Positions 14,522 through 54,672 of a stretch of 59,101 nt of DNA are shown here, piece after piece (position 1 is the first letter of the stretch; each line of letters starts with the position of its first letter). The notes beneath the pieces are model-generated. The model was not told the DNA's origin. It made no database searches and was given only the letters and a program-made list of their open reading frames with translations. The stretch comes from an uncultured Caldisericota bacterium (lineage in GTDB: Bacteria; Caldisericota; Caldisericia; UBA6126): contig CAZOYI010000091.1 in assembly GCA_964583965.1 (NCBI GenBank), forward strand, positions 1 to 59,101. Reading direction: 5' to 3'. The translations under genes and the position numbers were made by a program.

Positions 14522-15163
14522 ATGAAAAGAAAACATACAAATGAATTTTTAGGTCTGTTTGATCCACCTTCGTATGTTTTGTTTGACTTTGAAACTACTG
14601 GATTACAACCTCCAAAAGATAAACCACTCCAATTAGCCTATCTACTTCTTAATCCATATTTTCAAGTGTTGAAAGCGAAGAATTTTTATTTTCAAGTTCA
14701 GGAAGAAATTCCTTTATCTGCTACTAAAATTCATGGATTAACAAAAGCTAAACTTGTAGCATTAGGTGCTAAACCTCTTATACATCATCAAAATGAAATT
14801 CAATCAGATTTTTCTATACTGGGAATATTGCCGATTGCCCATAATGCTAGTTTTGATGTTCTTTTTTTGAAAAACTTTTTTTTGAAAAACTTTTCATTGA
14901 AACTGTTTTGTACAATGAAATACTACACCAACATTATTAAACTTCCAGGACTATATAGCGATTTTAAATGGCCTAAGGTATCTGAGACAATGCAATTTTT
15001 AAATATAGATGAAAAACAGACTCTTTTGACCTGCAAAGAACTTTTCTTGAACGATTCTATAGGATATCACGATGCACGCTTTGATATTGTATGTATTTTA
15101 AAGATGATTCAAAACGATCCTCTTTTGAGAGAACAAATATTGTTGGAAAAACAAAAGCAATAG
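14522..15163 (+). CDS. Stand-alone DEDDh 3'-5' exonuclease (DnaQ/epsilon-like)
   Basis: Exo I YVLFDFETTGL, Exo II IAHNASFDVLFL and Exo III GYHDARFDIV motifs are all present. 213 aa. Confidence 0.85.
   Translation: MKRKHTNEFLGLFDPPSYVLFDFETTGLQPPKDKPLQLAYLLLNPYFQVLKAKNFYFQVQEEIPLSATKIHGLTKAKLVALGAKPLIHHQNEIQSDFSILGILPIAHNASFDVLFLKNFFLKNFSLKLFCTMKYYTNIIKLPGLYSDFKWPKVSETMQFLNIDEKQTLLTCKELFLNDSIGYHDARFDIVCILKMIQNDPLLREQILLEKQKQ
14862..14890 (+). repeat. In-frame tandem duplication (T7-8 GAAAAAC x2, third degenerate copy follows) inside the exonuclease gene
   Basis: TTTTTTTGAAAAAC (14862-14875) is directly followed by TTTTTTTTGAAAAAC (14876-14890) and then TTTTCATTGAAAC. This encodes FLKNFFLKNFSLKLF immediately after the Exo II motif. 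Confidence 0.8.
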
Positions 15164-15222
15164 CAAGAGACTAATATGTGAAGCTGATTTAAAACTGTGA
15201 ATTCAGGTATTAGAAAACTGTT

Positions 15223-15250
15223 ATGTCTGTTATGTACCCTTAACAGACAT
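15223..15250. terminator. Shared hairpin between the convergent exonuclease gene and the oxidoreductase operon
   Basis: ATGTCTGTTA (15223-15232) pairs with TAACAGACAT (15241-15250), a perfect 10-bp stem with an 8-nt loop. On the minus strand it is followed by AACAGTTTTC. Confidence 0.5.
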
Positions 15251-15270
15251 GTAGTAAAAAACAACCAACT

Positions 15271-15825
15271 TTAAAAACGATAAATATTACCGGTTTTCGA
15301 AGCCATATTGTATCCAAATTTGGCAGCTTTAATATTCAATGTAAGTCTGTCATCAGAGAAAAAGTCACTTATTGCTTGTGTAAAAGAAGATAGTTCCAAT
15401 AATTTCGTAATACCAAGCATGTATCCAGTTGCCAAAATATTGGCAGCGAGTCGAGTGCCAAATTCTTCTTCGCAGATTGCCGTAAAAGGTTCAGTAAACG
15501 AAACGGCTTTGGAAATTGGTTCGGAATCAGGTATAAAAAAGCTATCTAAGATTCTAATACCGTTTTCACGAATCAAAATACCATATTTTTGATAGGCTTC
15601 GTGAGTCATCAAAAGTAGAATATCGGGAACTTCAATTTCTGGGAAGAAAATATCACGATCACTGATGATAACTTCACTTTTTGTTGCTCCACCCCTTGCT
15701 TCAGCACCGTATGATTGGGATTGCAAAGCATTTTTTTCTTCACGCAAAGCTGCCCTAGCAATAATACGGGTGGCCGTAATTAAGCCTTGACCACCAGAAC
15801 CTGAATAACGGATTTCTTTTCTCAT
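15271..15825 (-). CDS. 2-oxoacid:ferredoxin oxidoreductase, gamma subunit
   Basis: N-terminus IRYSGSGGQGLITATRIIARAAL and SQSYGAEARGG are hallmark gamma-subunit motifs. It is the last gene of a delta-alpha-beta-gamma set, the same order as Helicobacter oorDABC. Substrate cannot be read from the sequence. Confidence 0.9.
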   Translation of the reverse strand: MRKEIRYSGSGGQGLITATRIIARAALREEKNALQSQSYGAEARGGATKSEVIISDRDIFFPEIEVPDILLLMTHEAYQKYGILIRENGIRILDSFFIPDSEPISKAVSFTEPFTAICEEEFGTRLAANILATGYMLGITKLLELSSFTQAISDFFSDDRLTLNIKAAKFGYNMASKTGNIYRF

Positions 15826-16637
15826 GATTCTCTCACCTTTTTTAAAAGTTGTTCCCGTTTTTCTATATAGGAGTATCGCTGATTGTCTTCAATAAACTCA
15901 CCCATCATAAGATGTGATCTACGATCTTCTTCTGAAAGTGTTTCGTATTTTTCTTTTGTTAGAAGGATTTCTTTTTGCTGCAGCATCATTTTGTAAGGGT
16001 CTAATATACCATTAAGACGACCATAATAAACTGGACATTGTGTAATGACTTCAATCAGGGAGAACCCTTTTCTAGTAAATGCCTTATTCATATACTTTTT
16101 CATGTGTTTGTAATAGTAGCTACCTGTTCTTGCAGCATATGTTGCGCCAGCTCCGATGACAAGGCGCATCAGATCAAATCGATTTTCATAATTACCAAAC
16201 TGTGCAGTTGTTCCTATTTTATATGGGGCAGTTAAGGGAGAAACTTGTCCACCTGTCATACCATAAATGCTATTGTTAAAAACAATGACTGTAATATCTA
16301 TATTTCTTCTTGCCGCATGAATAAGGTGATTCCCACCAATAGCACTTGCATCACCATCGCCTGTGAAGACAATCACTTTTTTATCCGGACGTGAAAGTTT
16401 AATAGCAGTAGCAAATGGGATAGCTCGACCATGGAGTGTATGAACTTGATCAAACTGTGTATATGTACCAGATCGGGAAGAGCAACCAATACCGGAAACA
16501 CAGACTACATCATTTTTTGTACAATTCATCTCTTCTAGAGTTTCTAAAGCAGCATGCAAAACAATCCCATTACCACACCCAGGGCACCATATTGTGGGCA
16601 AACGGTCTGGGTTAAAAAATTTTTCACCTTTAATCAT
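15822..16637 (-). CDS. 2-oxoacid:ferredoxin oxidoreductase, beta (TPP-binding) subunit
   Basis: WCPGCGNGIVL cluster/TPP N-terminus. TGDGDASAIGGNHLIHAARRN TPP-Mg motif. IYGMTGGQVSP. Confidence 0.93.
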   Translation of the reverse strand: MIKGEKFFNPDRLPTIWCPGCGNGIVLHAALETLEEMNCTKNDVVCVSGIGCSSRSGTYTQFDQVHTLHGRAIPFATAIKLSRPDKKVIVFTGDGDASAIGGNHLIHAARRNIDITVIVFNNSIYGMTGGQVSPLTAPYKIGTTAQFGNYENRFDLMRLVIGAGATYAARTGSYYYKHMKKYMNKAFTRKGFSLIEVITQCPVYYGRLNGILDPYKMMLQQKEILLTKEKYETLSEEDRRSHLMMGEFIEDNQRYSYIEKREQLLKKVRES

Positions 16638-17754
16638 GGATATCCTCGATTCTTCTTAACATTTCTTTGGGTGGAATAAGTTCTCCTCCAATTTTTTCCA
16701 TAAGGTGAACTTTTTTATCGGGTAAGATTCTTTGCATTTCATATACATATTGACCTAGATTAAGTTCTGTGACGATGATTTTTTTTGCATTTCTTGTAGC
16801 ATTTTGAATTTTGATAGGGTCGATAGGGAAAAGAATTTTAGGTCGAATAAGACCAATTTCAGGATGATCAGAATAAAGCAGCGATTTTACTGTGCGACTT
16901 GCTACGCCATAGGATATAAACATGATTTCAGCATCAGGGTTGATAATTTCAACTTCATATAATTCTGAAGTGTGTTTTTCAATTTTGCGATGAATTCTAC
17001 GAATCAGTCTGTCGGCTACTTCGTAATCAGCACTTTGGAAACCATTTTCCATATGGATTAATCCCGTCACGCTTGTTCCAAGACCATCACCAATATTCCC
17101 TATGATTGGAACGTCATCTATAAATTTACCATAGGACAAATAAGAATCTCCAGGCTTTAGGTCGGGAAGAATGCGGTTAATAATAGTAACATTTTCGTGT
17201 GGATCAATTTCAATCTTTTCACGCATATGGACAATTGTTTCGGTAGTAAGAATAATAACTGGAGTGCGGTATTTTTCAGATAAATTAAAAGCTTGTATTG
17301 TCATCTCGTACAATTCTTGAACAGAAGATGGGCTTAACACAATTATTGGATGATCACCATGAGAACCCCACCTAGATTGCATTACGTCACCTTGAGCAAC
17401 TTTTGTTGGTAGACCCGTGGATGGTCCACCCCGCTGAACATTGACAATGACTATTGGCACTTCTACCATAGCTGCATAACCAAGTCCCTCTTGCATAAGA
17501 GAAAAGCCAGGACCAGAGGTTGCAGTCATTGATTTTTTACCAGCAAGAGAAGCACCAATGATAGCAGTAACGCTAGCAATTTCATCTTCCATTTGAATAA
17601 AAATCTTTTCTTCTCTGGCTAGAACAGTAGACAACAGCTCAGCTATTTCGGTGGAAGGAGTGATTGGATATCCAGCAAAAAAGCCTATACCCGCTTTTAA
17701 AGCTCCTCTTACGCAGGCCTCGGCACCTTGCAATATTTCTGTCTGTTTACTCAT
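16630..17754 (-). CDS. 2-oxoacid:ferredoxin oxidoreductase, alpha subunit
   Basis: GAEACVRGALKAGIGFFAGYPITPSTEI, TATSGPGFSLMQEGLGYA and VNVQRGGPSTGLPT blocks. I prefer ATG 17754 (MSKQTEIL), which overlaps the delta stop, over the track start at 17769. Confidence 0.93.
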   Translation of the reverse strand: MSKQTEILQGAEACVRGALKAGIGFFAGYPITPSTEIAELLSTVLAREEKIFIQMEDEIASVTAIIGASLAGKKSMTATSGPGFSLMQEGLGYAAMVEVPIVIVNVQRGGPSTGLPTKVAQGDVMQSRWGSHGDHPIIVLSPSSVQELYEMTIQAFNLSEKYRTPVIILTTETIVHMREKIEIDPHENVTIINRILPDLKPGDSYLSYGKFIDDVPIIGNIGDGLGTSVTGLIHMENGFQSADYEVADRLIRRIHRKIEKHTSELYEVEIINPDAEIMFISYGVASRTVKSLLYSDHPEIGLIRPKILFPIDPIKIQNATRNAKKIIVTELNLGQYVYEMQRILPDKKVHLMEKIGGELIPPKEMLRRIEDIHD

Positions 17755-17947
17755 GAAAATACACCTCAATTGCTAAATCTGGGCAATGTTCTTGGCATGC
17801 TAGACAGCCAATACATGCAGAAATATTTTCTACAAAAACATAACCAGTTGAATCCATGGCAAAAACGTTTTTCGGACAAATATTAACACAAATACTACAT
17901 CTCTTGCATCGTTTCTCATTAATCAAAACATCTTTAACTTTTTTCAA
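17747..17947 (-). CDS. 2-oxoacid:ferredoxin oxidoreductase, delta subunit (2x[4Fe-4S] ferredoxin)
   Basis: 66 aa with CKRCSICVNICP and CIGCLACQEHCP. TTG start (plus-strand CAA at 17945-17947). Confidence 0.85.
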   Translation of the reverse strand: MKKVKDVLINEKRCKRCSICVNICPKNVFAMDSTGYVFVENISACIGCLACQEHCPDLAIEVYFHE

Positions 17948-18014
17948 GATATTTACCTGCTTTCAAAGCTTTGATTACGTTGACCATTAAAGAAAACATT
18001 CCAGTTTTGTCAAT

Positions 18015-20981
18015 TTACAGAAATGAAAAATAGGAAGAATTTTTCTTCTTTTCTACAAAAAGATGTTGATGGAATGAATTTTTGAAATCCTCCTGGTGAG
18101 TAATAAATATCATTTTTTGGAATTGTTTTTGGATTTTTAATATTGTGTACATAACTTGATTTTTGCTGGATGCATCAAGAGTTCCTAGGTCCTGATCAAT
18201 ACATAAAAAGTCAGTTTTTAGCGATTGATTCTTGTGCAAAATATACGAAAGAGCGAGACGAAATGCTATATGTAATGAAAACTGTTCACCTTGACTTAAA
18301 AAAGGGAAGTCAACGGCATTTCCAAAATGATAAATTGCGACTCGAATTCCTTTTTCTGCATCAGATTTGGCATCAAGGTGAATCTGTATGGAAAGCGAAT
18401 CTTTAGATATATTGCGTAGAATTCGATTCACATCTCTTTCTATGAGAGGTAATATGCGATAAAGAATGTATGCTGGAAGGTTTTCTTGAGAAAATATTTG
18501 TTGGCAAAATGTAACTATTTCGGTTTGTTTTCGAAGTTCCGTTAATTCTCTTAGTGATTTGTCATATTCTTTTTGAACTTCATACATTACTTCCATGTCT
18601 CTTTCATGCCTAGCAATAGAAGAGATGATGGTTTCTTTATCATATTGATACTTATCCATGGATTCTTCAAGTTGATTTAATCGCCCTTCTGCTTCTTCTA
18701 GATCATGTTTTTGATAAGGTATATCTTTAATTTTTTCAATTTGTTCCTTAAGATCGATTTCAAGTTTTTCTAGTTTTTGTTCAACATCGTTTAACTGGTT
18801 TAATATTCGATTTTTCTCATCCAGTTTTTCATCCATTATCCTTTTTTCTGATTCAAAATACTTAAGTTGATTAATTTTATTCTTAATTGTTTCGTGTTCG
18901 GGAGCACTATAGTGGATCGCAAAAAATTTCTTTTTCACATCATTTATTTTCTTCCATTGATCTGTCGCATAATTTTTTGTTTCAATCCTACGTTTAATAT
19001 CAATGAGTTGTTTTGTAATTAGAGGTAACTTTTGATCTGCCTCTAGTGCACTTGATATTTGCAGTTGAAGGTCGCTTAAAGCACTTTCGAGTATGGATTG
19101 ACTAGAAACGGCATACATAGCTTCTACATAGTGTTTATCGATCGTTTTAAATCGGCTTTTTAAATTTGTAATCTTATATAAAGTTTTGTTCATTTCTTCT
19201 TCGATTTTGGATTCCTGTAATTTTGCTCGATAGTGATTTTCTGTTATTTTTCCTAGATTGGATTTGTAATCTTGGATACGCAAATAAAACGCTTGTAGTT
19301 CTTCTTCCTGGTCAAAATCTGATGAGAGAACGAGTATTTCACTTTTCAGTGTTTCAATTTTATTGGTAATGCGTTGGATAGTGTTTTTGTTCTTTTCAAG
19401 AGTAGTTTCTCTCATTTCAAGATCTCTACGGTAGTTCAGTAAAATATCTGCTTCTTTGTCTTTGTTGAGTGGTGTACCGCATAATGGACACCTATTTTCA
19501 GTGCTTTTAGGAAGTTCAAGAAAGTGAATTTTTTCACGTAGACGAACTGCCATTTCGTCGAATTTTTCATTTTGAGTCAGGAGATTTTGTTTTTTGTTTT
19601 GTTCAATTTCAATGTTGTTTTGGAGTAACTTTACTTTTTCTTTATTCTCGTGAATTGTCTGAAGTTTTTTCTTTGTCAGGGTTTCCTTTTGCATTACCTG
19701 TTTATATTCAGAAATTTGCTTTGCGATTGTATTGCAGGTCTCAAGAAAACTTATTTTTTCTTGTTTTAATGAACCAATTTTCTCATTTAAACTGTCAACC
19801 TGATCTTGAATATGACGTTTTTCTTGTTCTATGTTATCAATTTGGTAACGCTTTTTTTCCATCTCTTTCAATTTGGATTGTATTTCATGCATTTTGAGAT
19901 TCAGATCGGGCAAGAGGCTTTTTTTCTCAGAATACTCAATTTCCGTTTGCTCAAGTTCATTGCGCTTTGTTTTTAAATCCATCTCTTCTTGTTCAATGTT
20001 ATTTTGAATTTCCTTCATTTGGAGTTCTAATCTCTGTCTTTGTTCAAGATTTTCATTAAACACTTTGTTTCTTTGTATAAGATCAAGCAATTGCTTGTAG
20101 CCATTTTCAATTTCATGCTGTAGTTGAATTGATTGCTGGAGTTCATTGATTGTTTCAAGTAACGTGCTTCTTTCTTTGTGACGGTCGTTTTGATAGTTAC
20201 GTAATTGATGGATTTGATCCATCAGATTCGATTTGCGTTCCAAAAGATGATGGATCGTATGGATTTGATTTTTTAATTCTTGAATTGCTTCTTTGGAGTC
20301 ATTGATATGTTCTTCTAGCTTCTCTCTTTGGCTGATTTCTTCATCAATTCTTTTTTGAAAAACTTTCTTCTGAATAAGTTTATCTTTATTTTTTTGAATA
20401 AAATTTTCCAAAAGGCTCTCTCTAATTTTGTTTTGTGTAAAATCAACCTGAGTTTTTCGAAAAGATTCCTGATATGCTTCCAGTCTCAGAAAACGTGATA
20501 GTCTTTGATATCGTTCGCTTGGAGAATTTTCTAAAAACTCTTTATGGTTAGAAAAAGAAGAGCTCATCAAAGTCGTCATGAGGAGATTCTCAAGACTTAC
20601 ATTCACAAAAGAATGAACAAAGTTTTGATTTTCTTCATCTGTTGGTTTTGTTATTGTTTTCCAATAGGACTTTTTTCTTTCTTTTATCTCTATAGAAGGA
20701 CTCGGAGAGATATTTCGTTTCACCTTCCATATCGAATTTTCGTGCTGGAAAGTACATTCAGTAAATGAATCATGTTCTCCAAAGTGTACAAGAGAAGTGT
20801 CTGCATGATTTTGGGGATTTCTGGCAAAACCAAAAAGTGTAAATAACATTGCATCGAGGATGCTGCTTTTTCCTGCCCCGTTATTTCCGGTTATCATGGT
20901 ACTTCTGGCATTTGAAAGGTCGAGATGATGTGTTCCCTGATAAGATAAAAAATTATGGAGTGTGATTTCAATTGGAATCAT
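18015..20981 (-). CDS. SbcC/Rad50-like SMC-type ATPase with degenerate hydrolysis motifs
   Basis: 988 aa. Walker A ITGNNGAGKSSILDA. An approximately 700-aa Lys/Glu/Gln-rich coiled coil with a central zinc hook (NRCPLCGTPL). C-terminal head: signature LSQGE (canonical LSGGE), Walker B FLCIDQDLGTLD (canonical hhhhDEGFGTLD, so Glu is replaced by Gln; codon at 18192-18194), and H-loop IFITHQ. Confidence 0.85.
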   Translation of the reverse strand: MIPIEITLHNFLSYQGTHHLDLSNARSTMITGNNGAGKSSILDAMLFTLFGFARNPQNHADTSLVHFGEHDSFTECTFQHENSIWKVKRNISPSPSIEIKERKKSYWKTITKPTDEENQNFVHSFVNVSLENLLMTTLMSSSFSNHKEFLENSPSERYQRLSRFLRLEAYQESFRKTQVDFTQNKIRESLLENFIQKNKDKLIQKKVFQKRIDEEISQREKLEEHINDSKEAIQELKNQIHTIHHLLERKSNLMDQIHQLRNYQNDRHKERSTLLETINELQQSIQLQHEIENGYKQLLDLIQRNKVFNENLEQRQRLELQMKEIQNNIEQEEMDLKTKRNELEQTEIEYSEKKSLLPDLNLKMHEIQSKLKEMEKKRYQIDNIEQEKRHIQDQVDSLNEKIGSLKQEKISFLETCNTIAKQISEYKQVMQKETLTKKKLQTIHENKEKVKLLQNNIEIEQNKKQNLLTQNEKFDEMAVRLREKIHFLELPKSTENRCPLCGTPLNKDKEADILLNYRRDLEMRETTLEKNKNTIQRITNKIETLKSEILVLSSDFDQEEELQAFYLRIQDYKSNLGKITENHYRAKLQESKIEEEMNKTLYKITNLKSRFKTIDKHYVEAMYAVSSQSILESALSDLQLQISSALEADQKLPLITKQLIDIKRRIETKNYATDQWKKINDVKKKFFAIHYSAPEHETIKNKINQLKYFESEKRIMDEKLDEKNRILNQLNDVEQKLEKLEIDLKEQIEKIKDIPYQKHDLEEAEGRLNQLEESMDKYQYDKETIISSIARHERDMEVMYEVQKEYDKSLRELTELRKQTEIVTFCQQIFSQENLPAYILYRILPLIERDVNRILRNISKDSLSIQIHLDAKSDAEKGIRVAIYHFGNAVDFPFLSQGEQFSLHIAFRLALSYILHKNQSLKTDFLCIDQDLGTLDASSKNQVMYTILKIQKQFQKMIFITHQEDFKNSFHQHLFVEKKKNSSYFSFL

Positions 20982-22137
20982 GCAAACCTTCTTCAGAGAG
21001 ATATCTTAAGTAAGCTTTACGAATGTCAATTTGAAGTTCATTTGGAAACTTAGATTGTTTTTCATCAAAGAATGCATTCATATAGTAATCAAGAGGTAGT
21101 ATTTCTTCGTCTCCTACATAACAAAGTTTTTTACCTTGTTGCTCAATGCTATGTATATGGTAACAGTGATCTTCAAAAAGATGATAAATCTCGTAAAGCG
21201 AGAGTTTGGCGTCAGTATGGAGTAGTATTCTAGTAATGTGTTCTCGGTAATTATTGAGTAAGAATTCTTCATTTAGCTTTTCAATTGTTTCTTTTTCGGA
21301 ATTAGCATTGATACGAATTAATGCGGTTTTTCTTTGCTTTTCATTGTGTATAAAAACAGGAGGTGCAGACGTCTGTAAAGTGTCATATATCATAAAACCA
21401 CGTTCAATGGAAGAATCCGAAAATTCAAACTCTCCTAATGAACCTGGATATGACAACCAAGGGCCAGCGTTGTTTAACTGTTCAATTCTCTTATATGGTT
21501 GTCCTCCCAATGCGTAGAACTGAAAAGGAAGCTGATGAAGGTATTCTAAATCAAGAATTGGTAAATCAGGTAAGAGGAAGAAGGGCTCAAGGGATGGTAT
21601 TTGTGCTTGCATGAATAGAATTGGAAATTGTTCATTTTGAATTTTAGGAATCAGCTTAGCAATATGTTTTTTAGCTGATTCTGACAGTGATGTGGGATTT
21701 TCAGCTGTAGAGTGAAAGGTATTGTATGGGATTGCAGCAATTTGGAGGATTTCTTGTTCTTTTCGGATGGGAATGCAATCATTCTTGAGAATAATATGAA
21801 GATAATCATTAGAAAGAGACTGTAAGATTTGCAAAAAAGAATATCCTTGACAGTCTTGATCGTATTTGCCCTCTAGAACAACAACATGGATTTTCGAATG
21901 AATACAATCTCGGATTCCATCCATAATTATAGATTGAAGATAATCATTGGGAAGAGATGAAAAGAAAAAGTTTCCAGAAAACAAAATAATATCGATGAAG
22001 TTGTTTTTTGCATATTGAGTAACATATGTCCAATATCTAGCATAATCATGAATTTGTGAAAAATGATACAACGAAGATTCATTTTTGCCCATGTTCTGAA
22101 TTCCAAGAAAAAAATCTCCTGACTGTAAAATCTTCAT
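20968..22137 (-). CDS. SbcD/Mre11-like protein lacking the metallophosphoesterase metal ligands (intact ORF, predicted non-nuclease)
   Basis: 389 aa, collinear with SbcD. MKILQSGDFFLG vs MRILHTSDWHLG. IILFSGNFFF vs IIVAGDVFD. VVVLEGKYD vs VVLAGNHD. FYALGGQPY vs YIALGHIH. The start forms an ATGA overlap with the minE stop, and the 3' end overlaps the sbcC-like start by 14 nt. Confidence 0.75.
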   Translation of the reverse strand: MKILQSGDFFLGIQNMGKNESSLYHFSQIHDYARYWTYVTQYAKNNFIDIILFSGNFFFSSLPNDYLQSIIMDGIRDCIHSKIHVVVLEGKYDQDCQGYSFLQILQSLSNDYLHIILKNDCIPIRKEQEILQIAAIPYNTFHSTAENPTSLSESAKKHIAKLIPKIQNEQFPILFMQAQIPSLEPFFLLPDLPILDLEYLHQLPFQFYALGGQPYKRIEQLNNAGPWLSYPGSLGEFEFSDSSIERGFMIYDTLQTSAPPVFIHNEKQRKTALIRINANSEKETIEKLNEEFLLNNYREHITRILLHTDAKLSLYEIYHLFEDHCYHIHSIEQQGKKLCYVGDEEILPLDYYMNAFFDEKQSKFPNELQIDIRKAYLRYLSEEGLHDSN

Positions 22138-22367
22138 TGATCTTTTTCTAATTCACTTCTTTTAATAGGCATATCAGCAGTTAACTCGTAAGCAGTTTGG
22201 TAATGAGTACGAGTTATTCGAATATGAAGCTTTCTTTTATCAATGGGAAAATACTGACTTAATATAGCTGCTAATTTTTTCCGTAGGTCACGTTCACTTT
22301 TTGGAGAAAGAACTTTACGATCTTCATCCAAAATACGCTTTAAGCGATCTGTTAATTTTGAAGCCAT
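22134..22367 (-). CDS. minE: Cell-division topological specificity factor MinE
   Basis: 77 aa, directly after minD. The pattern LKRIL..DR...SP......LRKKLAAILSQYFPIDKRKLHIRITRT ... LTADMPIK matches clostridial-type MinE. Confidence 0.8.
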   Translation of the reverse strand: MASKLTDRLKRILDEDRKVLSPKSERDLRKKLAAILSQYFPIDKRKLHIRITRTHYQTAYELTADMPIKRSELEKDQ

Positions 22368-22376
22368 ACTATCTCC

Positions 22377-23174
22377 TTATGAAGCATTGTTTTTCATTTT
22401 CTCCCAAATAGATTTTGAAGCAGGGACTTTGTTGTGTATGGGTTTCTTTTTGTCGATAAGTTTTTCAGCGACGAGTTTAATATCGTTGGTAATCGTGAAA
22501 CTACTTTGATAAACAAAAGGTACGCCTGAATTATTTTGACGTAAAACACGTTCATCTTCTGAAATAACGCCTATACAGGGAACATTCAATAGGCTAATAA
22601 TATCTGGGGAAGTTATATAGTAGCTACGGCGACTTAACTCTTTACGGTATCGATTAATGAGGAGAAAAATTTCTTTCTTAATTCGATGGTTTTCAAGTAA
22701 AGCCAACACTCTATCAGCATCACGGATGGATGATATCTCGGGGTTTACGACAACAATTGCTTTTTTTGCAAAAAAGATAGATTTGTTGAAGCCTTCTTCA
22801 ATTCCTGCAGGTGAATCTATTATAATGTAATCAAACAGGGTTTCTAAATCCGTAAGTACTTGATGGAATTTAAAAAGGTTAACATCCTTCTTTAGGTCAC
22901 TTTGTGAAGCTGCAATAAGGGCTAGATAACTATGTGTCCTTTTGTCATATACCAATGCTTCTTCTAGCGAACATAAGCCTTTCGTCAGATCAACAATATT
23001 GGACTTTACTTTTCGTTCAAGTCCAATGATCATGTCTAAATTGCGTAAACCGATATCCATATCAATTACAACAACACTTCTTTTTTGAAGCGCGATACTG
23101 GTACCTATATTAGCAACCAAAGTTGACTTACCTACACCCCCTTTACCGGAGGTGAAAACAATAATTTGTGCCAT
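22377..23174 (-). CDS. minD: Septum site-determining ATPase MinD
   Basis: Deviant Walker A TSGKGGVGKSTLVAN. DMDIGLRNLD switch. IIIDSPAGIE. 265 aa, located between minC and minE. Confidence 0.93.
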   Translation of the reverse strand: MAQIIVFTSGKGGVGKSTLVANIGTSIALQKRSVVVIDMDIGLRNLDMIIGLERKVKSNIVDLTKGLCSLEEALVYDKRTHSYLALIAASQSDLKKDVNLFKFHQVLTDLETLFDYIIIDSPAGIEEGFNKSIFFAKKAIVVVNPEISSIRDADRVLALLENHRIKKEIFLLINRYRKELSRRSYYITSPDIISLLNVPCIGVISEDERVLRQNNSGVPFVYQSSFTITNDIKLVAEKLIDKKKPIHNKVPASKSIWEKMKNNAS

Positions 23175-23175
23175 A

Positions 23176-23898
23176 CTAATTCTGTGTCATTTTAATTGTA
23201 CTCACTTCTCCCTCATTATAATATATATAAACTGGTATGGAAACTTCTTTTAGTGAAGAGATTGAGTTATCTAGAGTTTTATTCGCAACGTAAACACGCA
23301 TTGCCTTCATTTCTTGGCATGCAAGAAGAGCTTGCTTACATTCTGGTTTTTTTGCAAAACCAACCTCTCCCTTGATAGAACCAAAAACATACAGTGATTT
23401 TCCTGCAAAAACTTTGGCTCCAGAATGTACATCCCCGAAAACCACAATATTTCCTGGGGATTGTACAACTACACCAGCTCTAACAGTCTTCCCGATCACA
23501 AGAAATTCATTAAAATCAAATGATTCTTCAGAAGAAGAAGGCGAAGATTCCGTTATATTCTTAAGATTTGAGGGAGATGTTGCTACGTAAACAGATGTCT
23601 GATCGATAGATTCTGATGGAGTTTCTCGATAGGTAAAAACCTGTTTGTTCATGAGGTAATGGAACATTGTGCGTACCATTCCGCCTTCATCGTCTGTTAA
23701 TTCTCTGTCAAAACCTGTTGCATATAAATCAACACTGGAACCAAAAAAATCCTGTTTCTTTTTATATATAGAAGCAGCTTTGCGGATGACTCGATCAAAT
23801 TCAAAGTCTTTTAGCATCAAGGACATAAGGATTCCTCCCGAGAATCCTTTAAAACTTACCACTGAGTCTGGTGTTCTTTTTGAGGGCAATTGTTTCAC
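23176..23898 (-). CDS. minC: Septum site-determining protein MinC
   Basis: 240 aa. C-terminal beta-helix repeats (VRAGVVVQSPGNIVVFGDVHSGAKVFAGKSLYVFGSIKGEV). A Ser-rich linker. GGAGGTG RBS. Located upstream of minD. Confidence 0.85.
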   Translation of the reverse strand: MKQLPSKRTPDSVVSFKGFSGGILMSLMLKDFEFDRVIRKAASIYKKKQDFFGSSVDLYATGFDRELTDDEGGMVRTMFHYLMNKQVFTYRETPSESIDQTSVYVATSPSNLKNITESSPSSSEESFDFNEFLVIGKTVRAGVVVQSPGNIVVFGDVHSGAKVFAGKSLYVFGSIKGEVGFAKKPECKQALLACQEMKAMRVYVANKTLDNSISSLKEVSIPVYIYYNEGEVSTIKMTQN

Positions 23899-23904
23899 CT
23901 CCGC

Positions 23905-25704
23905 TTAGTAAAGTTCATCATAGTATAGTATAAAATCTTTCAAGTAAGGTGCTAGTTCACTAGCATATTCAAATGAAGAATTTTCAAACATAAGGAAAGC
24001 GACACTTGACGGTTTTTCGTAAGGAAACATTGCACCCATCCATAAGTGTTGCTGTGTTTCTCTTTGACCTTCTACAAGAGCAGTACCTGTTTTTGCGGCA
24101 ATTTGGATAGATGGGATATAAAGTCCAGTTGCTGTCCCTGGGTAAATTGTTGTTTTGAAAAGTCCTTCCAAAACAACCTTATAGTATTCTTCAGAAATGT
24201 CAAAGGTTGTGGATTGATTTTTAGCCTGGGAGTGAAGATCTGCAAAAGTCTTTTCGGTAGATGTTTTTTTAAGGAGATGTGGAGTAATATGTGAATCATG
24301 AGTAGCGATAATGCCATATAATTTTGTCATCTGAAGTGGTGTAACAGAAAGAAAACCTTGTCCAATTCCTAGATTCATGGAATCGCCACGATACCAAGAA
24401 ACTCCTTTAAATTTTTCTTTCCACTCTGGGGTACCAAGAAAACCACTTTCTTCATAAGTTAGATCAATACCTGTTTTACGTGAAATACCACCATATTCTA
24501 CAGCAAAATCTACAAAACCATCAATATTGAATCGGTCTGCTAATTTATAAAAAAATACATCGCATGATACTTGAATGGCTTCAATAAGCTTAATGTAGCC
24601 ATGAGAAGAAGGATATACCCAGCACCGATATTTATCTTTTTGTCCTGGAATATTCAATGCCCCTTCACAAAGAATACTTTCTTGTGTAGTTACCAAGGAT
24701 TCCGTTAATCCATAAAGTGCTATGAGTGGTTTAAATGTAGAACCTGGTGGATACTGACCCATGGAAGCAATATTGAAGAAAGAACGATTTTCAATCCATT
24801 GATTCCATTTTTCCACAGGTCTTGGTCCTGAGAAAAAATTTGGATCAAAACCGGGATTAGAAACAAATGTAAGAATTTCTCCTGATGGAATATCCATGAG
24901 AAGCAAACATCCACGATGGTCTGATATGATTTCTTCTGCTTTTTTTTGCAACCGAATATCAATGGTGAGATAAACATCATCCCCCTTGATAACTTCTTTT
25001 TCTATGGTTTCTTCTTGAATAGACCCAAATACATTGATGGTTTGGTGTACTATACCCGGATAACCATGGAGAATGTCTTCATAATATCTTTCTACACCAG
25101 TTTGACCTATTCGTTCATTTGGTTTAAAACGAACTAAAGTGGGATTCTGCAGATCTTCTTTTGTAAGCATTCCAGTGTACCCCAAGACATGACATAATGA
25201 AGAATTATGTGGATAGTATCGCTTAAATCCCTCCTTCATAAAGATCCCTTTAAATTTATATTTATTTTCTTCTACACGCGTTTTTTCTTCGTAGGATAAA
25301 TTTTCTTTCAAAAGGACTTCTGAGTAAGAGTATTGATCTTTAATAGTATTCACTGTTGTTTCTTGTGGTAAACCAATATACTGTTCTAAAAGAGATGCCA
25401 TATGCTTTATATCAGGTATCTCATTTGGGGATGCATATAAATGAAAAGTAGGAACATCTTTGGCTACTACTATTCCATTTCTATCGTATATATTTCCTCT
25501 TGGGCTTTCTTGGGTAAGGGTTCTAGTATAGTTGTTAATAGCCATATTTTTAAATTCTTCCTGGTGAAAAGCCTGCATGTTGAATATACGAACAATTAGA
25601 AAGATTAAACTTACCAAGATTAGAAATGAAAACAAGATCATTTTAAAAGGGTGAATATCTTTGTGAATTAGAACTTGTAGAGTATTATGAGAACGGAATC
25701 TCAT
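23905..25704 (-). CDS. mrdA: Penicillin-binding protein 2 (elongasome class-B transpeptidase)
   Basis: N-terminal anchor and PBP dimerisation domain. Transpeptidase motifs GSTFKP (SxxK), VSCD (SxD as in PBP2) and KTGTA. It immediately follows mreD. Confidence 0.88.
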   Translation of the reverse strand: MRFRSHNTLQVLIHKDIHPFKMILFSFLILVSLIFLIVRIFNMQAFHQEEFKNMAINNYTRTLTQESPRGNIYDRNGIVVAKDVPTFHLYASPNEIPDIKHMASLLEQYIGLPQETTVNTIKDQYSYSEVLLKENLSYEEKTRVEENKYKFKGIFMKEGFKRYYPHNSSLCHVLGYTGMLTKEDLQNPTLVRFKPNERIGQTGVERYYEDILHGYPGIVHQTINVFGSIQEETIEKEVIKGDDVYLTIDIRLQKKAEEIISDHRGCLLLMDIPSGEILTFVSNPGFDPNFFSGPRPVEKWNQWIENRSFFNIASMGQYPPGSTFKPLIALYGLTESLVTTQESILCEGALNIPGQKDKYRCWVYPSSHGYIKLIEAIQVSCDVFFYKLADRFNIDGFVDFAVEYGGISRKTGIDLTYEESGFLGTPEWKEKFKGVSWYRGDSMNLGIGQGFLSVTPLQMTKLYGIIATHDSHITPHLLKKTSTEKTFADLHSQAKNQSTTFDISEEYYKVVLEGLFKTTIYPGTATGLYIPSIQIAAKTGTALVEGQRETQQHLWMGAMFPYEKPSSVAFLMFENSSFEYASELAPYLKDFILYYDELY

Positions 25705-26177
25705 GATAGAATTCTTCTTTTTTCATACTGAGTAAGGATTCTTCTTTTTAAATAGAGCAATATGGGATAAGGGATCATAAGCACAACGAGAATTTGAATG
25801 ATAAAAGAAGTCCATATCGACAAAGAGACAAACTGTGAAACCAGAAGTAAGTAAATTGGGAAAAGAAAAACAATTTCTGTTTGAAACAAGACAAGTGAAG
25901 AGATTTGAAAAACTTTCTGAAAAATATAATAAAATAGAACTATACAACTATATGCTAGAAATATTGGCAGTATTAGGTTGTGTGGGAGAAAACTAAATTT
26001 TAAAAGTAGCAAAGGAATGGACAACACAAAAAAGGTACTTTCCAAAAGAGACAATCCCCCTAGGAAAACAACAATAGAAATATCAATCCAATATTGAGAT
26101 GGAAAAAGAGAGGGGAAAAAAAATAAATCGAGAAACACTGCCCCAAGCTGGAGGATAAAAAAAATAACCCGCGTCAT
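25701..26177 (-). CDS. mreD: Rod shape-determining protein MreD
   Basis: 158-aa polytopic membrane protein. It overlaps the mreC stop and the mrdA start by 4 nt each. Canonical position. Confidence 0.72.
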   Translation of the reverse strand: MTRVIFFILQLGAVFLDLFFFPSLFPSQYWIDISIVVFLGGLSLLESTFFVLSIPLLLLKFSFLPHNLILPIFLAYSCIVLFYYIFQKVFQISSLVLFQTEIVFLFPIYLLLVSQFVSLSIWTSFIIQILVVLMIPYPILLYLKRRILTQYEKRRILS

Positions 26178-26995
26178 TGAAATATAAATACTTCAGTTAG
26201 AGTCGAAGTGTTAAATGAGGGTTGAACGATAGCTATTGAATGAATAGATGAAGATGATTCAATTTGATCAATAATACCAAGAACTAGATTGTTGGGTAGA
26301 GAGGAGTAACTACTTACAACGACAACATCACTCTTTTGAAAATCCTGCTCTTGGTAAAACTTGATGAATAATAGACCTCTTTTCTTATCATAGGATAATG
26401 TACCGTTGGCATTGTTACGAAGGTTCCGGATACTTATGGAAGATGATTCGTCATATATAGATAAGACGTCTGACTCCATGATACCGACGCGAGAAATTCT
26501 TCCAATCAATTGAAAATGAACTTTCACTGCTGATGTTGAGATAGGACTTACCACAGCTGCATTTTCGTTTACTCCCAAGTTCGTTCCCGCATTTACAGTA
26601 AAATTCATAGGGTTTGTAGCGTCTCTAATTAAGATGGAGCATGGCAAGAGATTATTGTATTGTTGCTGAATCCTGAAAAAAGATAATAAACGTTTATTCT
26701 CTTCTTCCACTTGCTTTAATACAGCAATTTCACTGCGTAATCTTTCGTTTTCATCTTGTAGGGAAATAGCTTTTTCGTTTAACAACGGGTATTGCCCTAT
26801 ATGCTTGAAGAATCTTTGAATTGAATTTGAACTGTTGGAAAGCACACCGCCTATGGGTGCAAGAACGGACCTTGATAGAGTAATAGTAACTTTGGAGAAA
26901 TTTGATGTCGAGTAAATAGACCAAAAAACAACCACAATTACAGATAGCAGAATGGTGAAGATTAAAAGGGACCAACTTTTTTTTGGAGTAGCCAT
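26174..26995 (-). CDS. mreC: Rod shape-determining protein MreC
   Basis: N-terminal anchor, coiled coil (LQDENERLRSEIAVLKQVEEENKRL), then beta-barrel domains (GRISRVGIMESDV). Starts 3 nt after mreB. Confidence 0.85.
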   Translation of the reverse strand: MATPKKSWSLLIFTILLSVIVVVFWSIYSTSNFSKVTITLSRSVLAPIGGVLSNSSNSIQRFFKHIGQYPLLNEKAISLQDENERLRSEIAVLKQVEEENKRLLSFFRIQQQYNNLLPCSILIRDATNPMNFTVNAGTNLGVNENAAVVSPISTSAVKVHFQLIGRISRVGIMESDVLSIYDESSSISIRNLRNNANGTLSYDKKRGLLFIKFYQEQDFQKSDVVVVSSYSSLPNNLVLGIIDQIESSSSIHSIAIVQPSFNTSTLTEVFIFQ

Positions 26996-26998
26996 GGT

Positions 26999-28036
26999 TT
27001 ATCGATAATACTTCACTTTTAAAAGCAAGGGTATAAGTTTTTCAAGGTTTTCAACAATTTTACCAGCACCAAGTGCAACACATAAAACAGGATTTTCAGC
27101 ATTTGAAACTAAAATACCGGTACCTTCAGAAATATATCTTGCCATACCGCGAATTAGAGAGCCTCCACCGGCTAAAAAAATACCTCGGTCAATAATATCA
27201 GCAGCTAGGTCAGGGGGTGTTACTTCTAATGTTGCTTTTAATGCTTCCATGATGCTTATCAATACATCGTTTAGTGCAATTCTAGTTTCTTCAGAGGTTA
27301 TTGTAACAGTCCTCGGAAGTCCAGTTATCAAATCTCTTCCTTTAATTTCAGCTGATGCGATATCGTTGGATGGATAGGCAGCACCAATTTCAATTTTAAT
27401 TTCTTCAGCAGTATAAATACCAACGAGAAGATTGTATTGGCGTTTTAAGTATTGAAGAATGGCTTCGTTCATTTCGTCACCGGCGATTCGAATCGAATTC
27501 TTTGCTACAATACCATTAAGAGAGACTACTGCAACTTCGCATGTACCACCACCTATATCAACGATCATATTGCCCGTAGGTTCATTTACGGGTAAATTGG
27601 CTCCAAGTGCTGCTGCCATAGGCTCTTGAACTAAACCAACATATTTTGCACCAGCTTGATATCCGGCTTCAATAACTGCTCTCATTTCAACTTCAGTGAT
27701 ACCAGACGGAATTCCAATAACAAGTCTTGGACGAATCCTTCCCAAAAGGCCTTTACAAGCTCCAACTTTTTGGATCAGGTATTCAATTAGTTTTTGAGTG
27801 ACTTCAAAATTTGCAATAACTCCATCTTTTAATGGACGAATGATCTGTATAGCTTCGGGGACTCTTCCTGCCATTCGTTTTGCTTCATTGCCAATAGCAA
27901 TGATTTGCCCATTTTCTCTTTGTACTGCCACAATTGAAGGTTCTCGTAGCATTATTCCTTTACCAGCAATATATACAAGTGTGTTTGCTGTTCCTAAATC
28001 AATTGCAATATCTTTACTAAAATGACCAAATCTCAT
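26999..28036 (-). CDS. mreB: Actin-like rod shape-determining protein MreB
   Basis: DIAIDLGTANTLVY, VIGIPSGITEVE, MIVDIGGGTCEVAVVSL and GIFLAGGGSLIRG motifs. 345 aa. Confidence 0.97.
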   Translation of the reverse strand: MRFGHFSKDIAIDLGTANTLVYIAGKGIMLREPSIVAVQRENGQIIAIGNEAKRMAGRVPEAIQIIRPLKDGVIANFEVTQKLIEYLIQKVGACKGLLGRIRPRLVIGIPSGITEVEMRAVIEAGYQAGAKYVGLVQEPMAAALGANLPVNEPTGNMIVDIGGGTCEVAVVSLNGIVAKNSIRIAGDEMNEAILQYLKRQYNLLVGIYTAEEIKIEIGAAYPSNDIASAEIKGRDLITGLPRTVTITSEETRIALNDVLISIMEALKATLEVTPPDLAADIIDRGIFLAGGGSLIRGMARYISEGTGILVSNAENPVLCVALGAGKIVENLEKLIPLLLKVKYYR

Positions 28037-28058
28037 GATTCACTCCAATTAAATAAAT

Positions 28059-28577
28059 TTATGTCACAGTTTGATTAATCTTTGGTAGTGCTATCGTAAC
28101 AATCCATCCTGTGATAAAGCCTCCAAAAAAACCAGAAATTATCAGTAACGGTACATAGTATAGTAAATATTTATCAGGAATAAAAAAAAGAACAATCAAT
28201 AATTGTCCAATATTGTGTGCAATCGCTCCGACAATACTCATGTTAATAATCTTTTTAGGAGACAATGCTACGATTATATACATTCCAGCAAGACTCAGTA
28301 GTATCCCACCAAAAGCAATGCATATAGTTACAGCATTGATGGAAGGCTCGAATAAGCCTGATAAAATAGCCCTAGAAAGAGATAAAAAAACTGCATCACG
28401 AAAACTCAATAAATAGATGCAAAACAAAACAACAATATTGGAAATACCTGGTTTTAGTAAGTAACCACCAATCGGAATGGAGATGTAGGACTCCAAAAAG
28501 TGAAGAATAACACCGATTCCTAGAAGTAATGCAAAAAAAGTAAATCTATGAACCGTAGTTCTCTGCATAGATTTCAT
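28059..28577 (-). CDS. Gx transporter family membrane protein (heptaprenyl-diphosphate-synthase component I-like)
   Basis: 172 aa, about 5 TM. Family-typical blocks LKPGISNIVVLF and SIVGAIAHNIGQLLIV. It overlaps the apbE 3' end, a frequent partnership. Confidence 0.72.
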   Translation of the reverse strand: MKSMQRTTVHRFTFFALLLGIGVILHFLESYISIPIGGYLLKPGISNIVVLFCIYLLSFRDAVFLSLSRAILSGLFEPSINAVTICIAFGGILLSLAGMYIIVALSPKKIINMSIVGAIAHNIGQLLIVLFFIPDKYLLYYVPLLIISGFFGGFITGWIVTIALPKINQTVT

Positions 28578-29556
28578 ACTCGTGAGAAAGGTGATAAAAA
28601 TAAATTGATGATTGAGCTACGAATTGATTTTGTATACTTAGGTGAGGATGATGACCAACAAGAAAAAAATAGGTAGATAAAAAATCTGATTCTAAACCAC
28701 TCCAAGTAGCTACTGTTACTGAAGAGATTTCTGGTATAGCAGATCCAGTTTTAGGGTGTACGATATGAGTATATGTTATTCCATCTTGCTGGAACGACTG
28801 GTGCTTTGAAGAAGAAGTTGAAACAAATCCTCTGTGAATATAAAAACCTTTTTTTACGGCTTTATTGAATGGATTTTCAATACCAACGTATAAGGGTTTT
28901 TCTGTTGCGATGCACAAATTACCACCAAAATCTACAACGAATTGTTCTATGCCGTTTTGGAGAAAGTAATCAGCAATTTTATCCAATGTATATCCTTTCA
29001 ATAATCCTGACAAATCTATATACATACCATTTTTTGGTAAATACACTGTGTTTTCATTTGCATTCAGAATGATTTTCTGATAATTAACGTATCGCAAAGC
29101 ATTACGAATCTCCTTATTTGACGGAACGTGTGGGTGTGAATCTTCAAAACGGTACAATTCTAAAAGCGGTCCGATGGTTATATCAAAAACTCCGTCTGCT
29201 TCTTGGCATAAACGGTATGCTTGCTTGATCAAAAAAAAAGTCTCGACATCTACATGAATAGGGACATATCCAGCATTCTGTTTGATACGATACAAATCAG
29301 AACCAATGGTGTAAACATTCATTTTTCCATCAATTTCTTGAACAATCTTCATGATATTGTCGATATGGTGATCTGAGTATTCTGTAGAGGGCATCTTGAT
29401 GGATAAAAATGTGTTCATTGAAAAAAAAGTACGTTCAGTCCATGTAGAAATATCAGAAGGGTAACATGACAAAAGAAAAGACCCGATAAAACATAATATG
29501 GTGACAATACAAGTGACTCTGATATAGCGAATGGGTTGTTTGATGAGATCAATCAT
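28546..29556 (-). CDS. apbE: FAD:protein FMN transferase ApbE (lipoprotein)
   Basis: Lipobox (FLLSC). FSMNTFLSI, GVFDITIGPL, IDLSGLLKGY, VVDFGGNL and THIVHPKTG motifs. Confidence 0.9.
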   Translation of the reverse strand: MIDLIKQPIRYIRVTCIVTILCFIGSFLLSCYPSDISTWTERTFFSMNTFLSIKMPSTEYSDHHIDNIMKIVQEIDGKMNVYTIGSDLYRIKQNAGYVPIHVDVETFFLIKQAYRLCQEADGVFDITIGPLLELYRFEDSHPHVPSNKEIRNALRYVNYQKIILNANENTVYLPKNGMYIDLSGLLKGYTLDKIADYFLQNGIEQFVVDFGGNLCIATEKPLYVGIENPFNKAVKKGFYIHRGFVSTSSSKHQSFQQDGITYTHIVHPKTGSAIPEISSVTVATWSGLESDFLSTYFFLVGHHPHLSIQNQFVAQSSIYFYHLSHEYEIYAENYGS

Positions 29557-44717: not shown

Positions 44718-44747
44718 TAAAGAAATTTGTAACTTTTGGAGGTATAT

Positions 44748-54636: not shown

Positions 54637-54672
54637 AGTAAAATAATATCACAAAAAGTGAGGAACCGTAAG

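Follow-up and report, generated by a model that had tools for sequence, protein, structure and literature searches.

An SbcD/Mre11 homologue with a dismantled metal site and its degenerate SbcC-like partner are maintained in an uncultured Caldisericota clade

A gene pair on a contig of an uncultured Caldisericota bacterium (GenBank assembly GCA_964583965.1, contig CAZOYI010000091.1; the 59,101 nucleotides analyzed are referred to here as the window) encodes a version of the SbcCD (Mre11-Rad50 [MR]) complex in which the nuclease has lost its metal site and the ATPase is degenerate. The first gene, an open reading frame (ORF) on the reverse strand (20968..22137), as are the protein segments located below unless the forward strand is given, encodes a protein, here called pseudo-SbcD, that has the nuclease domain, the capping domain and the C-terminal helix-loop-helix of the Mre11/SbcD fold but a dismantled di-metal site. 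The second gene (18015..20981, same strand) encodes an SbcC/Rad50-like partner of 988 amino acids with a degenerate ATPase head and a conserved coiled coil and hook. In the ancestor of the clade that carries this pair (the dead clade), the di-metal site was dismantled. In the co-translated SbcC, the Gln of the Q-loop and the canonical form of the signature have disappeared; the Walker-B Glu was lost in three of the four deep lineages, and both proteins are under strong purifying selection. The present function of the complex is probably non-enzymatic. The best explanation overall, which we hold with moderate confidence, is that this pseudo-nuclease/pseudo-ATPase complex serves as a coiled-coil tether or scaffold that binds ATP and does not cut. 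The Mre11-Rad50/SbcCD complex is, to our knowledge, universal, and a search of the literature found no description of a dead SbcCD complex or of an operon link between min and sbc genes.

Fold and metal site of the SbcD-like protein

Pseudo-SbcD had been described preliminarily as an SbcD/Mre11 homologue, and both profile and structure comparisons support this assignment. Profile-profile alignment with hhalign against 16 canonical SbcDs gave a probability of 100% (E = 2e-40) over 381 columns. A phmmer search against PDB chains matched Pyrococcus furiosus Mre11 (E = 5.6e-4), pairing GNFFFSS with GDLFHSS, EGKYD with EGNHD, and ALGGQPYKR with ALG-HIHKR, and the family profile aligned Thermotoga maritima Mre11 to residues 1-261. 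Structure prediction, one of the checks proposed at the outset, showed that the fold is retained. The AlphaFold2 model reached a mean predicted local distance difference test (pLDDT) score of 70 from a 7-sequence alignment and 85.9 (five models, 84.7-85.9) from a 55-sequence alignment consisting mostly of canonical sequences. Both models matched Mre11/SbcD structures only (3qg5, E = 1.3e-17; Staphylococcus aureus SbcD 7dog, TM score 0.79), and the top 49 Foldseek matches of the model with pLDDT 85.9 were all Mre11/SbcD. The two C-terminal helices (residues 349-359 and 366-382; 20992..21093) align with the SbcC/Rad50-binding helix-loop-helix of canonical SbcD. Pseudo-SbcD is an SbcD by descent and fold.

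In canonical Mre11/SbcD proteins, the di-Mn site is coordinated by seven residues (D, H, D, N, H, H, H), which five phosphoesterase motifs contribute along with the catalytic His of GNHD. The corresponding columns of pseudo-SbcD were read from the hhalign alignment against the canonical SbcDs, with canonical residues numbered as in P0009, the best canonical match of the family profile, which has every SbcD motif. In motif I (G7-D8-F9-F10-L11-G12, canonical GDLHLG; 22102..22119), the Asp is kept (D8 for canonical D12) and the His is replaced by Phe (F10 for H14), the codon of which had been correctly located at 22108-22110. Motif II (S54-G-N56-F-F-F59, canonical AGDIY; 21961..21978) has Asn in place of Asp (N56 for D60), and motif III (E89-G-K91-Y92-D93-Q94, canonical GNHDS; 21856..21873) has Lys in place of Asn (K91 for N95) and Tyr in place of the catalytic His (Y92 for H96) while keeping the following Asp (D93 for D97). 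The His of motif IV (F175-M-Q177-A-Q-I180, canonical TAHLT; 21598..21615) is replaced by Gln (Q177 for H194), with a 5-residue deletion immediately after the motif, and both His residues of motif V (L210-G-G212-Q-P214-Y215, canonical LGHIHK; 21493..21510) are lost (G212 for H233 and P214 for H235). D8 is the only one of the seven metal ligands to survive; the other six have been replaced, as has the catalytic His.

The preliminary description had read these remnants by eye as GDFFLG, SGNFFF, EGKYD, FMQAQI and LGGQPY and had estimated that roughly six of the seven ligands are gone; the profile-profile columns agree with it on both counts. Its statement that all five motifs are degenerate holds insofar as replacements occur in all five, but the Asp of motif I (D8) and the Asp of GNHD (D93) survive. 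The curated profiles point the same way as the ligand columns. Pfam Metallophos (PF00149) does not match pseudo-SbcD, and the match to NCBIfam TIGR00619 (sbcd; E = 1.7e-9, 37.8 bits) lies under the cut-off of 77.65. Across the dead-clade SbcDs, the scores range from 37.8 to 51.5 bits for TIGR00619 and from 0 to 17.5 bits for Metallophos, so that all miss both thresholds, whereas the syntenic canonical orthologue P0009 (locus L012) clears both (Metallophos, 54.7 bits; TIGR00619, 137.9 bits). The metallophosphoesterase at 53659-54591 (reverse strand), which had been put forward as an internal control, does retain every motif (DIH, GD, GNHD, SHH and GHTHH; Pfam Metallophos, 42 bits). Its nearest family is TIGR03729, "putative phosphoesterase" (72.5 bits, below the cut-off of 148); it is no paralogue of SbcD, and no SbcC-like gene lies beside it. 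Pseudo-SbcD is thus predicted to be devoid of Mn2+-dependent exo- or endonuclease activity and, because it fails both in the defining catalytic features and in the curated thresholds, should not be annotated as a nuclease.

The dead version is confined to an uncultured clade. In a database of 5.8 billion proteins, only seven matched the query, and one of these bears the name "Caldisericia bacterium." When 1.84 billion cluster representatives were searched exhaustively with the family profile, one more lineage was added (P0008, 323 bits), below which the scores drop to 106 bits, where the ordinary SbcDs start. The gene is present in six GTDB species genomes, all Caldisericota metagenome-assembled genomes (MAGs), one of which is labeled Calditrichota; a metagenome scan found three further contigs with the gene, all in lineages already known. 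The label in question belongs to L005 (DAIMET010000003.1, titled "Calditrichota bacterium"), the locus proteins of which are 80-98% identical to those of Caldisericia loci, with full synteny; the label is probably wrong. Altogether, the dead clade comprises at least four deep lineages (the window with L005 and L009; L003 with L006, L007 and L008; L001; and L011), with protein identities of 35-87%. All four share the dead motifs [D/S]-x-F, G-N, [GN]-[KQ]-Y-D-Q and x-Q-[AL]. As the same substitutions occur in every family member found, they are neither a chance feature nor a sequencing artifact, and a single ancestral loss of the metal site would be the parsimonious account of them.

Could pseudo-SbcD nevertheless still be an enzyme, with another set of residues (D8, N56, Y92, D93, Q94 and Q177) making up a site that uses one metal or depends on Tyr, for instance, and with slow ATP hydrolysis by its partner? 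The former pocket is still constrained, since no member of the dead clade differs at N56, Y92, D93, Q94 or Q177; D8 is kept in three of the four lineages, and L011 combines a Walker-B DE pair with one His retained in motif V. However, D8 is Ser in L001, and the replacements F10, GGQP, SNFPF and SGQPF are unable to coordinate metal. Single ligand substitutions, such as D8N or His to Asn, are enough to abolish the nuclease activity of Mre11. Furthermore, unlike an active site, motif V varies by lineage (GGQPY, SGQPF, SNFPF and GGYHI), and the motif regions show the greatest loss of conservation, with an identity over the motif III region (residues 91-120) of 0.32 in the dead clade vs 0.74 in the canonical relatives. 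Retained catalysis of this kind is therefore very unlikely.

The SbcC-like partner and the shift in constraint

The changes in the SbcC-like protein came to light when it was aligned both to Rad50 structures and to the SbcC of canonical Caldisericia. The protein keeps Walker A (GNNGAGKS, G32-NNGAGK-S39; 20865..20888), which is intact in all lineages, the zinc hook (CPLC, C498-P-L-C501; 19479..19490), which is invariant, the D-loop (GTLD), and the H-loop (ITH) with its conserved His962 (18096..18098). The other ATPase elements are altered. The former Q-loop reads LMSSSFSN (20547..20570) where the canonical relatives have VMIMQGKAD, with loss of the Gln and a 2-residue insertion. The signature is L895-S-Q-G-E899 (18285..18299) in place of the canonical FSGGE and becomes LSSGE or LSTAE in other dead lineages. 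In Walker B (F925-L-C-I-D929-Q930; 18192..18209), which precedes the D-loop, the catalytic Glu is replaced by Gln. The Walker-B pair differs between lineages, with D-Q in that of the window, D-N in L003 and L008, D-D in L001, and D-E in L011; the SbcC of the canonical relatives has IMQGKAD, FSGGE and IDEG. Since L011 has a dead SbcD and yet retains the Walker-B DE pair, the loss of the nuclease came first and the ATPase residues eroded later. Judging from its sequence, the SbcC-like protein of most lineages is without the residues for efficient ATP hydrolysis. The profile matches are Pfam AAA_23 at 60.6 bits, Rad50_zn_hook at 19.7 bits, under its gathering score, and TIGR00618 at 62 bits against a cut-off of 478.5, with no match to Pfam SbcC_Walker_B.

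Purifying selection on the pair was estimated as dN/dS with the Nei-Gojobori (NG86) method, on pairs with unsaturated dS of ∼0.6-0.8. Over their whole lengths, the values were 0.081-0.091 for the SbcD-like protein and 0.054-0.061 for the SbcC-like protein, compared with 0.09-0.11 for mreC, 0.05-0.08 for pbp2 and 0.025-0.03 for minD, so that the SbcD-like protein resembles mreC of the same operon. Within the proteins, dN/dS was 0.07-0.11 in the nuclease domain and 0.013-0.07 in the capping domain of the SbcD-like protein, and 0.08-0.15 in the ATPase heads and 0.03-0.04 in the coiled coil of the SbcC-like protein. Even values of ∼0.1 are far from neutrality. The claim of the preliminary description that the gene is maintained rather than decaying is upheld by these values and by the conservation of the dead motifs at 35% identity. 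With high confidence, then, the dead nuclease would be maintained for a non-nucleolytic function.

Relative rates were measured as pairwise divergence (-ln identity) divided by the mean of pbp2, minC, minD, porA and porB. The normalized divergence is 2.2-2.7 for SbcD in the dead clade vs 1.24-1.67 for canonical pairs, and 1.9-2.1 vs 1.0-1.25 for SbcC. This approximately two-fold excess over the canonical orthologues, together with the failed curated thresholds, is what would be expected if the genes were on their way out, that is, if SbcDC function had been lost and the ORFs persisted through relaxed, residual or polar constraint, such as coupling needed for por expression. Several observations speak against such decay. 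Approximately 4.1 kb of ORF is intact in all ∼10 species-level genomes of the four lineages, which are 35-44% identical; dN/dS is 0.05-0.10 overall and lower still in the coiled coil; new residues have become invariant across the clade; and the pair does not overlap por, being separated from the next gene by a 67-nt gap. Neither gene shows frameshifts, stops or a dN/dS near 1. Frameshifts and relaxed selection in relatives had been named in advance as signs of a pseudogene in the making: the former do not occur in any of the loci, whereas relaxation is evident, about two-fold, in the catalytic modules. Ongoing decay thus appears extremely improbable.

The catalytic cores are no longer where constraint is concentrated; it has shifted to the coiled coil, the zinc hook and one segment of the capping domain. 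In SbcC, the identity of the head segments is 0.29-0.54 in the dead clade vs 0.55-0.85 in the canonical relatives, whereas that of the coiled coil (residues 251-750) is unchanged (0.52-0.63 vs 0.48-0.63). The dead clade thereby inverts the usual Rad50 pattern, in which the head is more conserved than the coil. In SbcD, the ratio of dead to canonical identity falls to 0.43-0.77 over residues 61-240. Conversely, conservation in the dead clade is highest in a strand-helix-strand segment of the capping domain (residues 271-300, ...ALIRINANSEKETIEKLNEEFLLNNYREHI; 21238..21327) that includes ...EKLNEEFLLN..., with an identity of 0.59 vs 0.27 in the canonical relatives, a ratio of 2.2. This segment is a candidate new functional surface.

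The shared locus and its canonical orthologues

Comparison of ∼20-kb stretches per genome showed that the dead pair occupies the position of an ordinary sbcDC. The MinE-based protein search, limited by its word index, returned just 5 close relatives and reached no sister lineages; these were reached via P0009 and its homologues, which include proteins named "Caldisericia bacterium." The P0009 locus (L012) has the order pbp2-minC-minD-minE-sbcD-sbcC-ferredoxin-porABG, the same block as in the window, and its SbcC has IMQG, FSGGE, IDEG and ITH. Canonical sbcDC in this arrangement was found in five Caldisericia lineages (L012; L019-22; L023-24; L025; and L027), and the full gene order ApbE / Hpre_diP_synt_I / mreBCD-pbp2-minCDE-sbcD-sbcC-fdx-porABG is common to dead lineages (the window, L001, L003, L005-L009 and L011) and canonical ones. 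The overlap between minE and sbcD likewise occurs in dead and canonical loci alike. Within the loci compared, the canonical copies all come from MAGs other than those with the dead version. MAGs with the dead pair have the contig prefixes DAIMET01, CAZBOU01, CAYRWA01, JAQVSG01, JAXGOZ01 and CAYRBR01, and the canonical Caldisericia MAGs include JAQVYZ01, PWMK01 and JBJSVY01. The dead pair is therefore a positional orthologue of normal sbcDC that was changed in place. In a neighbor-joining tree of SbcD, the dead clade is monophyletic on a long branch; the orthology rests on synteny because long-branch and midpoint-rooting effects prevent the tree from placing the clade within Caldisericia.

The next-best profile matches, P0010 and P0011, do not come from Caldisericia-type loci: one is located in a phage replication module, and the other on a short contig that lacks minE; as neither has the minE link, the connection between minE and sbcD is not general. 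The locus of P0011, the third-best match (L017, 1-13182), places a canonical Mre11-like gene in an apparent phage replication module, together with a DNA polymerase A with a uracil-DNA glycosylase (UDG) domain, gp32, RecA, a gene of the NUMOD3 homing-endonuclease-like type and a 5'-3' exonuclease; the gene calls of this stretch place no Rad50 gene beside it.

In the window, the pair follows a block of genes on the same strand (22134..28036) that runs from mreB (26999-28036) through mreC (26174-26995), mreD (25701-26177), pbp2 (23905-25704), minC (23176-23898) and minD (22377-23174) to minE (22134-22367). The junction between the minE stop and the pseudo-sbcD start is ATGA, a 4-nt overlap, and the last 14 nt of pseudo-sbcD overlap the start of the SbcC-like ORF, so that the intact 389-codon frame (ATG to TGA) and the coupled overlaps with both neighbors reported in the preliminary description are confirmed. 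On the evidence of gene order and junctions, sbcD-sbcC is the translationally coupled tail of a mreBCD-pbp2-minCDE operon across the sampled Caldisericia. Promoter and terminator scans of 15000-30000 did not rise above the level of shuffled sequence, and operon boundaries could not be called from them. Downstream of the pair lie a 4Fe-4S ferredoxin ORF (17747-17947) and the POR alpha subunit ORF (16630-17769, reverse strand). The 66-amino-acid ferredoxin ORF, located between the sbcC-like gene and porA, is present in the window and is not among the gene calls of L001, L003 and L011. The POR alpha ORF, as mechanically called, starts with TTG five codons upstream of the Met that opens the products in L001, L008, L011 and L012; its true start is probably M6. 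In L009 (MAG JAXGOZ01, 8531-9761), the minC and minD ORFs are shortened to 103 and 153 aligned residues, compared with ∼237 and ∼265, with intact flanks, which could be due to a frameshift or an assembly error.

The locus also bears on the possibility that the pair is a Lamassu-like or other Rad50-derived defense sensor, in which a non-nuclease Mre11-like partner triggers a separate effector. A precedent for such a partner exists: LmuC of Lamassu (MC1 type) is Mre11-like and has no nuclease domain (bioRxiv 10.1101/2025.03.14.643221). The SbcC-like protein matches the PADLOC LmuB model at 74.9 bits, but the canonical Caldisericia SbcC scores higher (96.9 bits), so that the match is generic, and by this control the identification of the SbcC-like protein as LmuB was rejected. 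The SbcD-like protein has no PADLOC match, LmuC included, and there is no adjacent effector, the neighbors being minE and ferredoxin/POR. Moreover, by position the pair is orthologous to housekeeping sbcDC, and it has been inherited vertically as part of a core operon. A defense role of this type is accordingly highly improbable.

Several other features of the window lie outside this block. A 926-amino-acid ORF (29549-32329, reverse strand) has no Pfam match at E ≤ 1e-5; at the same place upstream of ApbE, L001, L003 and L011 have a large ORF (at least 778-953 amino acids, running off the locus ends), one with a faint IgGFc_binding match. A protein of 1225 amino acids (44736-48413, forward strand) combines S-layer-homology repeats with two 5'-nucleotidase C-terminal domains, and two large subtilases of 1094 and 906 amino acids are encoded at 6576-9860 (reverse strand) and 54658-57378 (forward strand), respectively. 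These three proteins suggest a surface-anchored apparatus for scavenging nucleotides and proteins.

A proposed role and known systems

The favored reading is that the pair has become a tether that binds ATP and does not cut. The two proteins would be produced from the end of the mreBCD-pbp2-minCDE operon and would assemble into an (SbcD-like)2(SbcC-like)2 particle; assembly and head engagement are inferred because the C-terminal helix-loop-helix, Walker A, D-loop, H-loop and CxxC hook are all kept. ATP would still be bound to engage the heads, with no DNA cutting and no efficient ATP hydrolysis. Rad50 and SMC proteins with Walker-B E-to-Q mutations bind ATP and engage their heads while hydrolyzing it poorly, and nuclease-dead Mre11 still permits complex formation and DNA tethering. 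The complex would then serve as a long, nucleotide-switched, zinc-hooked tether or clamp, with an SMC-like structural role rather than that of a repair nuclease; from ∼300 coiled-coil residues per arm, its span may be roughly 2 × 45 nm, a rough estimate rather than a computed value. Whether the complex is specifically an ATP-binding, hydrolysis-impaired tether seems to us evenly balanced. The weakest step is the cargo, which we guess, tentatively and with some doubt, to be DNA, for example, chromosome segments that the complex would bridge or anchor during division.

Several points weigh against this reading. The Walker-B Glu is present in one lineage and replaced by Asp in another, so that some ATP hydrolysis may persist. 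The two-fold faster evolution relative to the neighboring genes has the look of relaxed selection. The mre/min context is ancestral and common to canonical sbcDC and hence offers no evidence for a new role related to division. Finally, the N-lobe of the SbcC-like head, which in Rad50 carries the DNA-binding surface, is the least conserved part of the protein (identity of 0.29-0.34), with a Lys+Arg content of 10-12% vs 14-17% in the canonical relatives; this loss of conservation and of basic residues weakens the version in which the complex clamps DNA. The net charge and the Lys+Arg content of the head are weak and ambiguous guides to DNA binding.

The loss in the N-lobe and the newly conserved capping-domain surface keep alive a version in which DNA is not a ligand at all and the coil, hook and capping surface have been co-opted as a cytoskeleton-like protein scaffold that binds Min, Mre or divisome proteins or self-assembles. 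Consistent with such a scaffold, conservation is highest in the coil and hook, where dN/dS is also lowest within the SbcC-like protein, the conserved surface at SbcD-like residues 271-300 is new, and translation of pseudo-sbcD is coupled to that of minE within the mre/min operon. There is also a precedent in the Rad50-like arcadin-4 of the archaeal crenactin cluster, along with a weak N-terminal match to NCBIfam Rkd4. Conversely, the coil of canonical Caldisericia SbcC shows about the same degree of conservation, which is therefore not new, the operon context is ancestral, and the strict conservation of Walker A, D-loop and H-loop argues that a nucleotide switch is still needed. We consider a pure protein scaffold unlikely. 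A broader form of the idea, that the whole SbcCD, stripped of its nuclease and ATP-hydrolysis chemistry, was exapted to a structural machine whose zinc-hooked coils and newly conserved capping surface serve the Mre/Min shape and division apparatus, as a tether between chromosome and division site or a cytoskeletal ruler, is speculative and would be only slightly less doubtful. If it were true, a bacterial MR complex would have moved from DNA repair to cell organization, and its hosts may live without an SbcCD nuclease.

Work on the nuclease-independent functions of MR complexes, such as tethering, signaling and clamp formation, has to date relied mainly on engineered point mutants. The dead clade is a natural double separation of function, in which nuclease and ATPase residues were removed and the complex was kept in at least four deep lineages, with intact same-locus orthologues in sister lineages as built-in controls. 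It thus offers a comparative system for the role of a non-cutting MR complex and for the parts that matter without catalysis, namely, the coiled coil, the hook, Walker A and the capping-domain helix. The automated labels "SbcCD nuclease subunit" and "hypothetical protein" are both misleading for the dead pair.

The closest known systems are canonical SbcCD complexes, including those of Escherichia coli, T. maritima (Mre11-Rad50) and the Caldisericia orthologues. They share with the dead pair the nuclease and capping fold, the C-terminal helix-loop-helix, an SbcC of the same length (∼990 amino acids), the zinc hook, Walker A, D-loop and H-loop, the arrangement of sbcD and sbcC as two overlapping ORFs, and, in the Caldisericia orthologues, the same position behind minE. 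Unlike them, the dead pair has six of seven ligands and the catalytic His replaced, lacks the Q-loop Gln, and has an altered signature and a Walker-B Glu changed to Gln, Asn or Asp in most lineages; it fails the hidden Markov model thresholds, and its conservation pattern is inverted. In Lamassu LmuB-LmuC (MC1), a Rad50-like zinc-hook ATPase is likewise joined to an Mre11-derived partner without nuclease activity, and LmuB has low ATPase activity (bioRxiv 10.1101/2025.03.14.643221). LmuC has no nuclease domain, however, whereas pseudo-SbcD keeps an inactivated one, and Lamassu has an LmuA effector and resides in mobile defense islands, whereas the dead pair has no effector and belongs to a vertically inherited core operon. 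Arcadin-4/Rkd4, encoded with crenactin, and the archaea-specific SMC-related proteins (ASRP) resemble the present case in having a Rad50-like head and coil beside genes of the actin family (MreB/crenactin). The matches of the SbcC-like protein to NCBIfam Rkd4 and ASRP are weak, far below the cut-offs, and equally present for canonical SbcC; moreover, proteins of this type are not known to have an Mre11-like partner, and the genomic association described here was inherited from a canonical ancestor.

Pseudoenzymes with the metallophosphoesterase fold are known, including the retromer subunit Vps29 and the B-subunits of the eukaryotic DNA polymerases alpha, delta and epsilon, which became scaffolds after loss of metal ligands. 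They show the same retention of a calcineurin-like fold as a scaffold but belong to an unrelated lineage with other partners; none is known to be an Mre11/SbcD orthologue or to have a degenerate Rad50 partner. The nearest functional counterparts are laboratory mutants, namely, nuclease-dead Mre11 (H129N/H125N classes) and Rad50 with the Walker-B E-to-Q substitution, which keep complex formation, head engagement and DNA binding or tethering and lose cleavage or hydrolysis. The substitutions in the dead clade are of the same kinds and at the same positions, but they are natural, multiple and fixed, and they were followed by further divergence of the catalytic modules.

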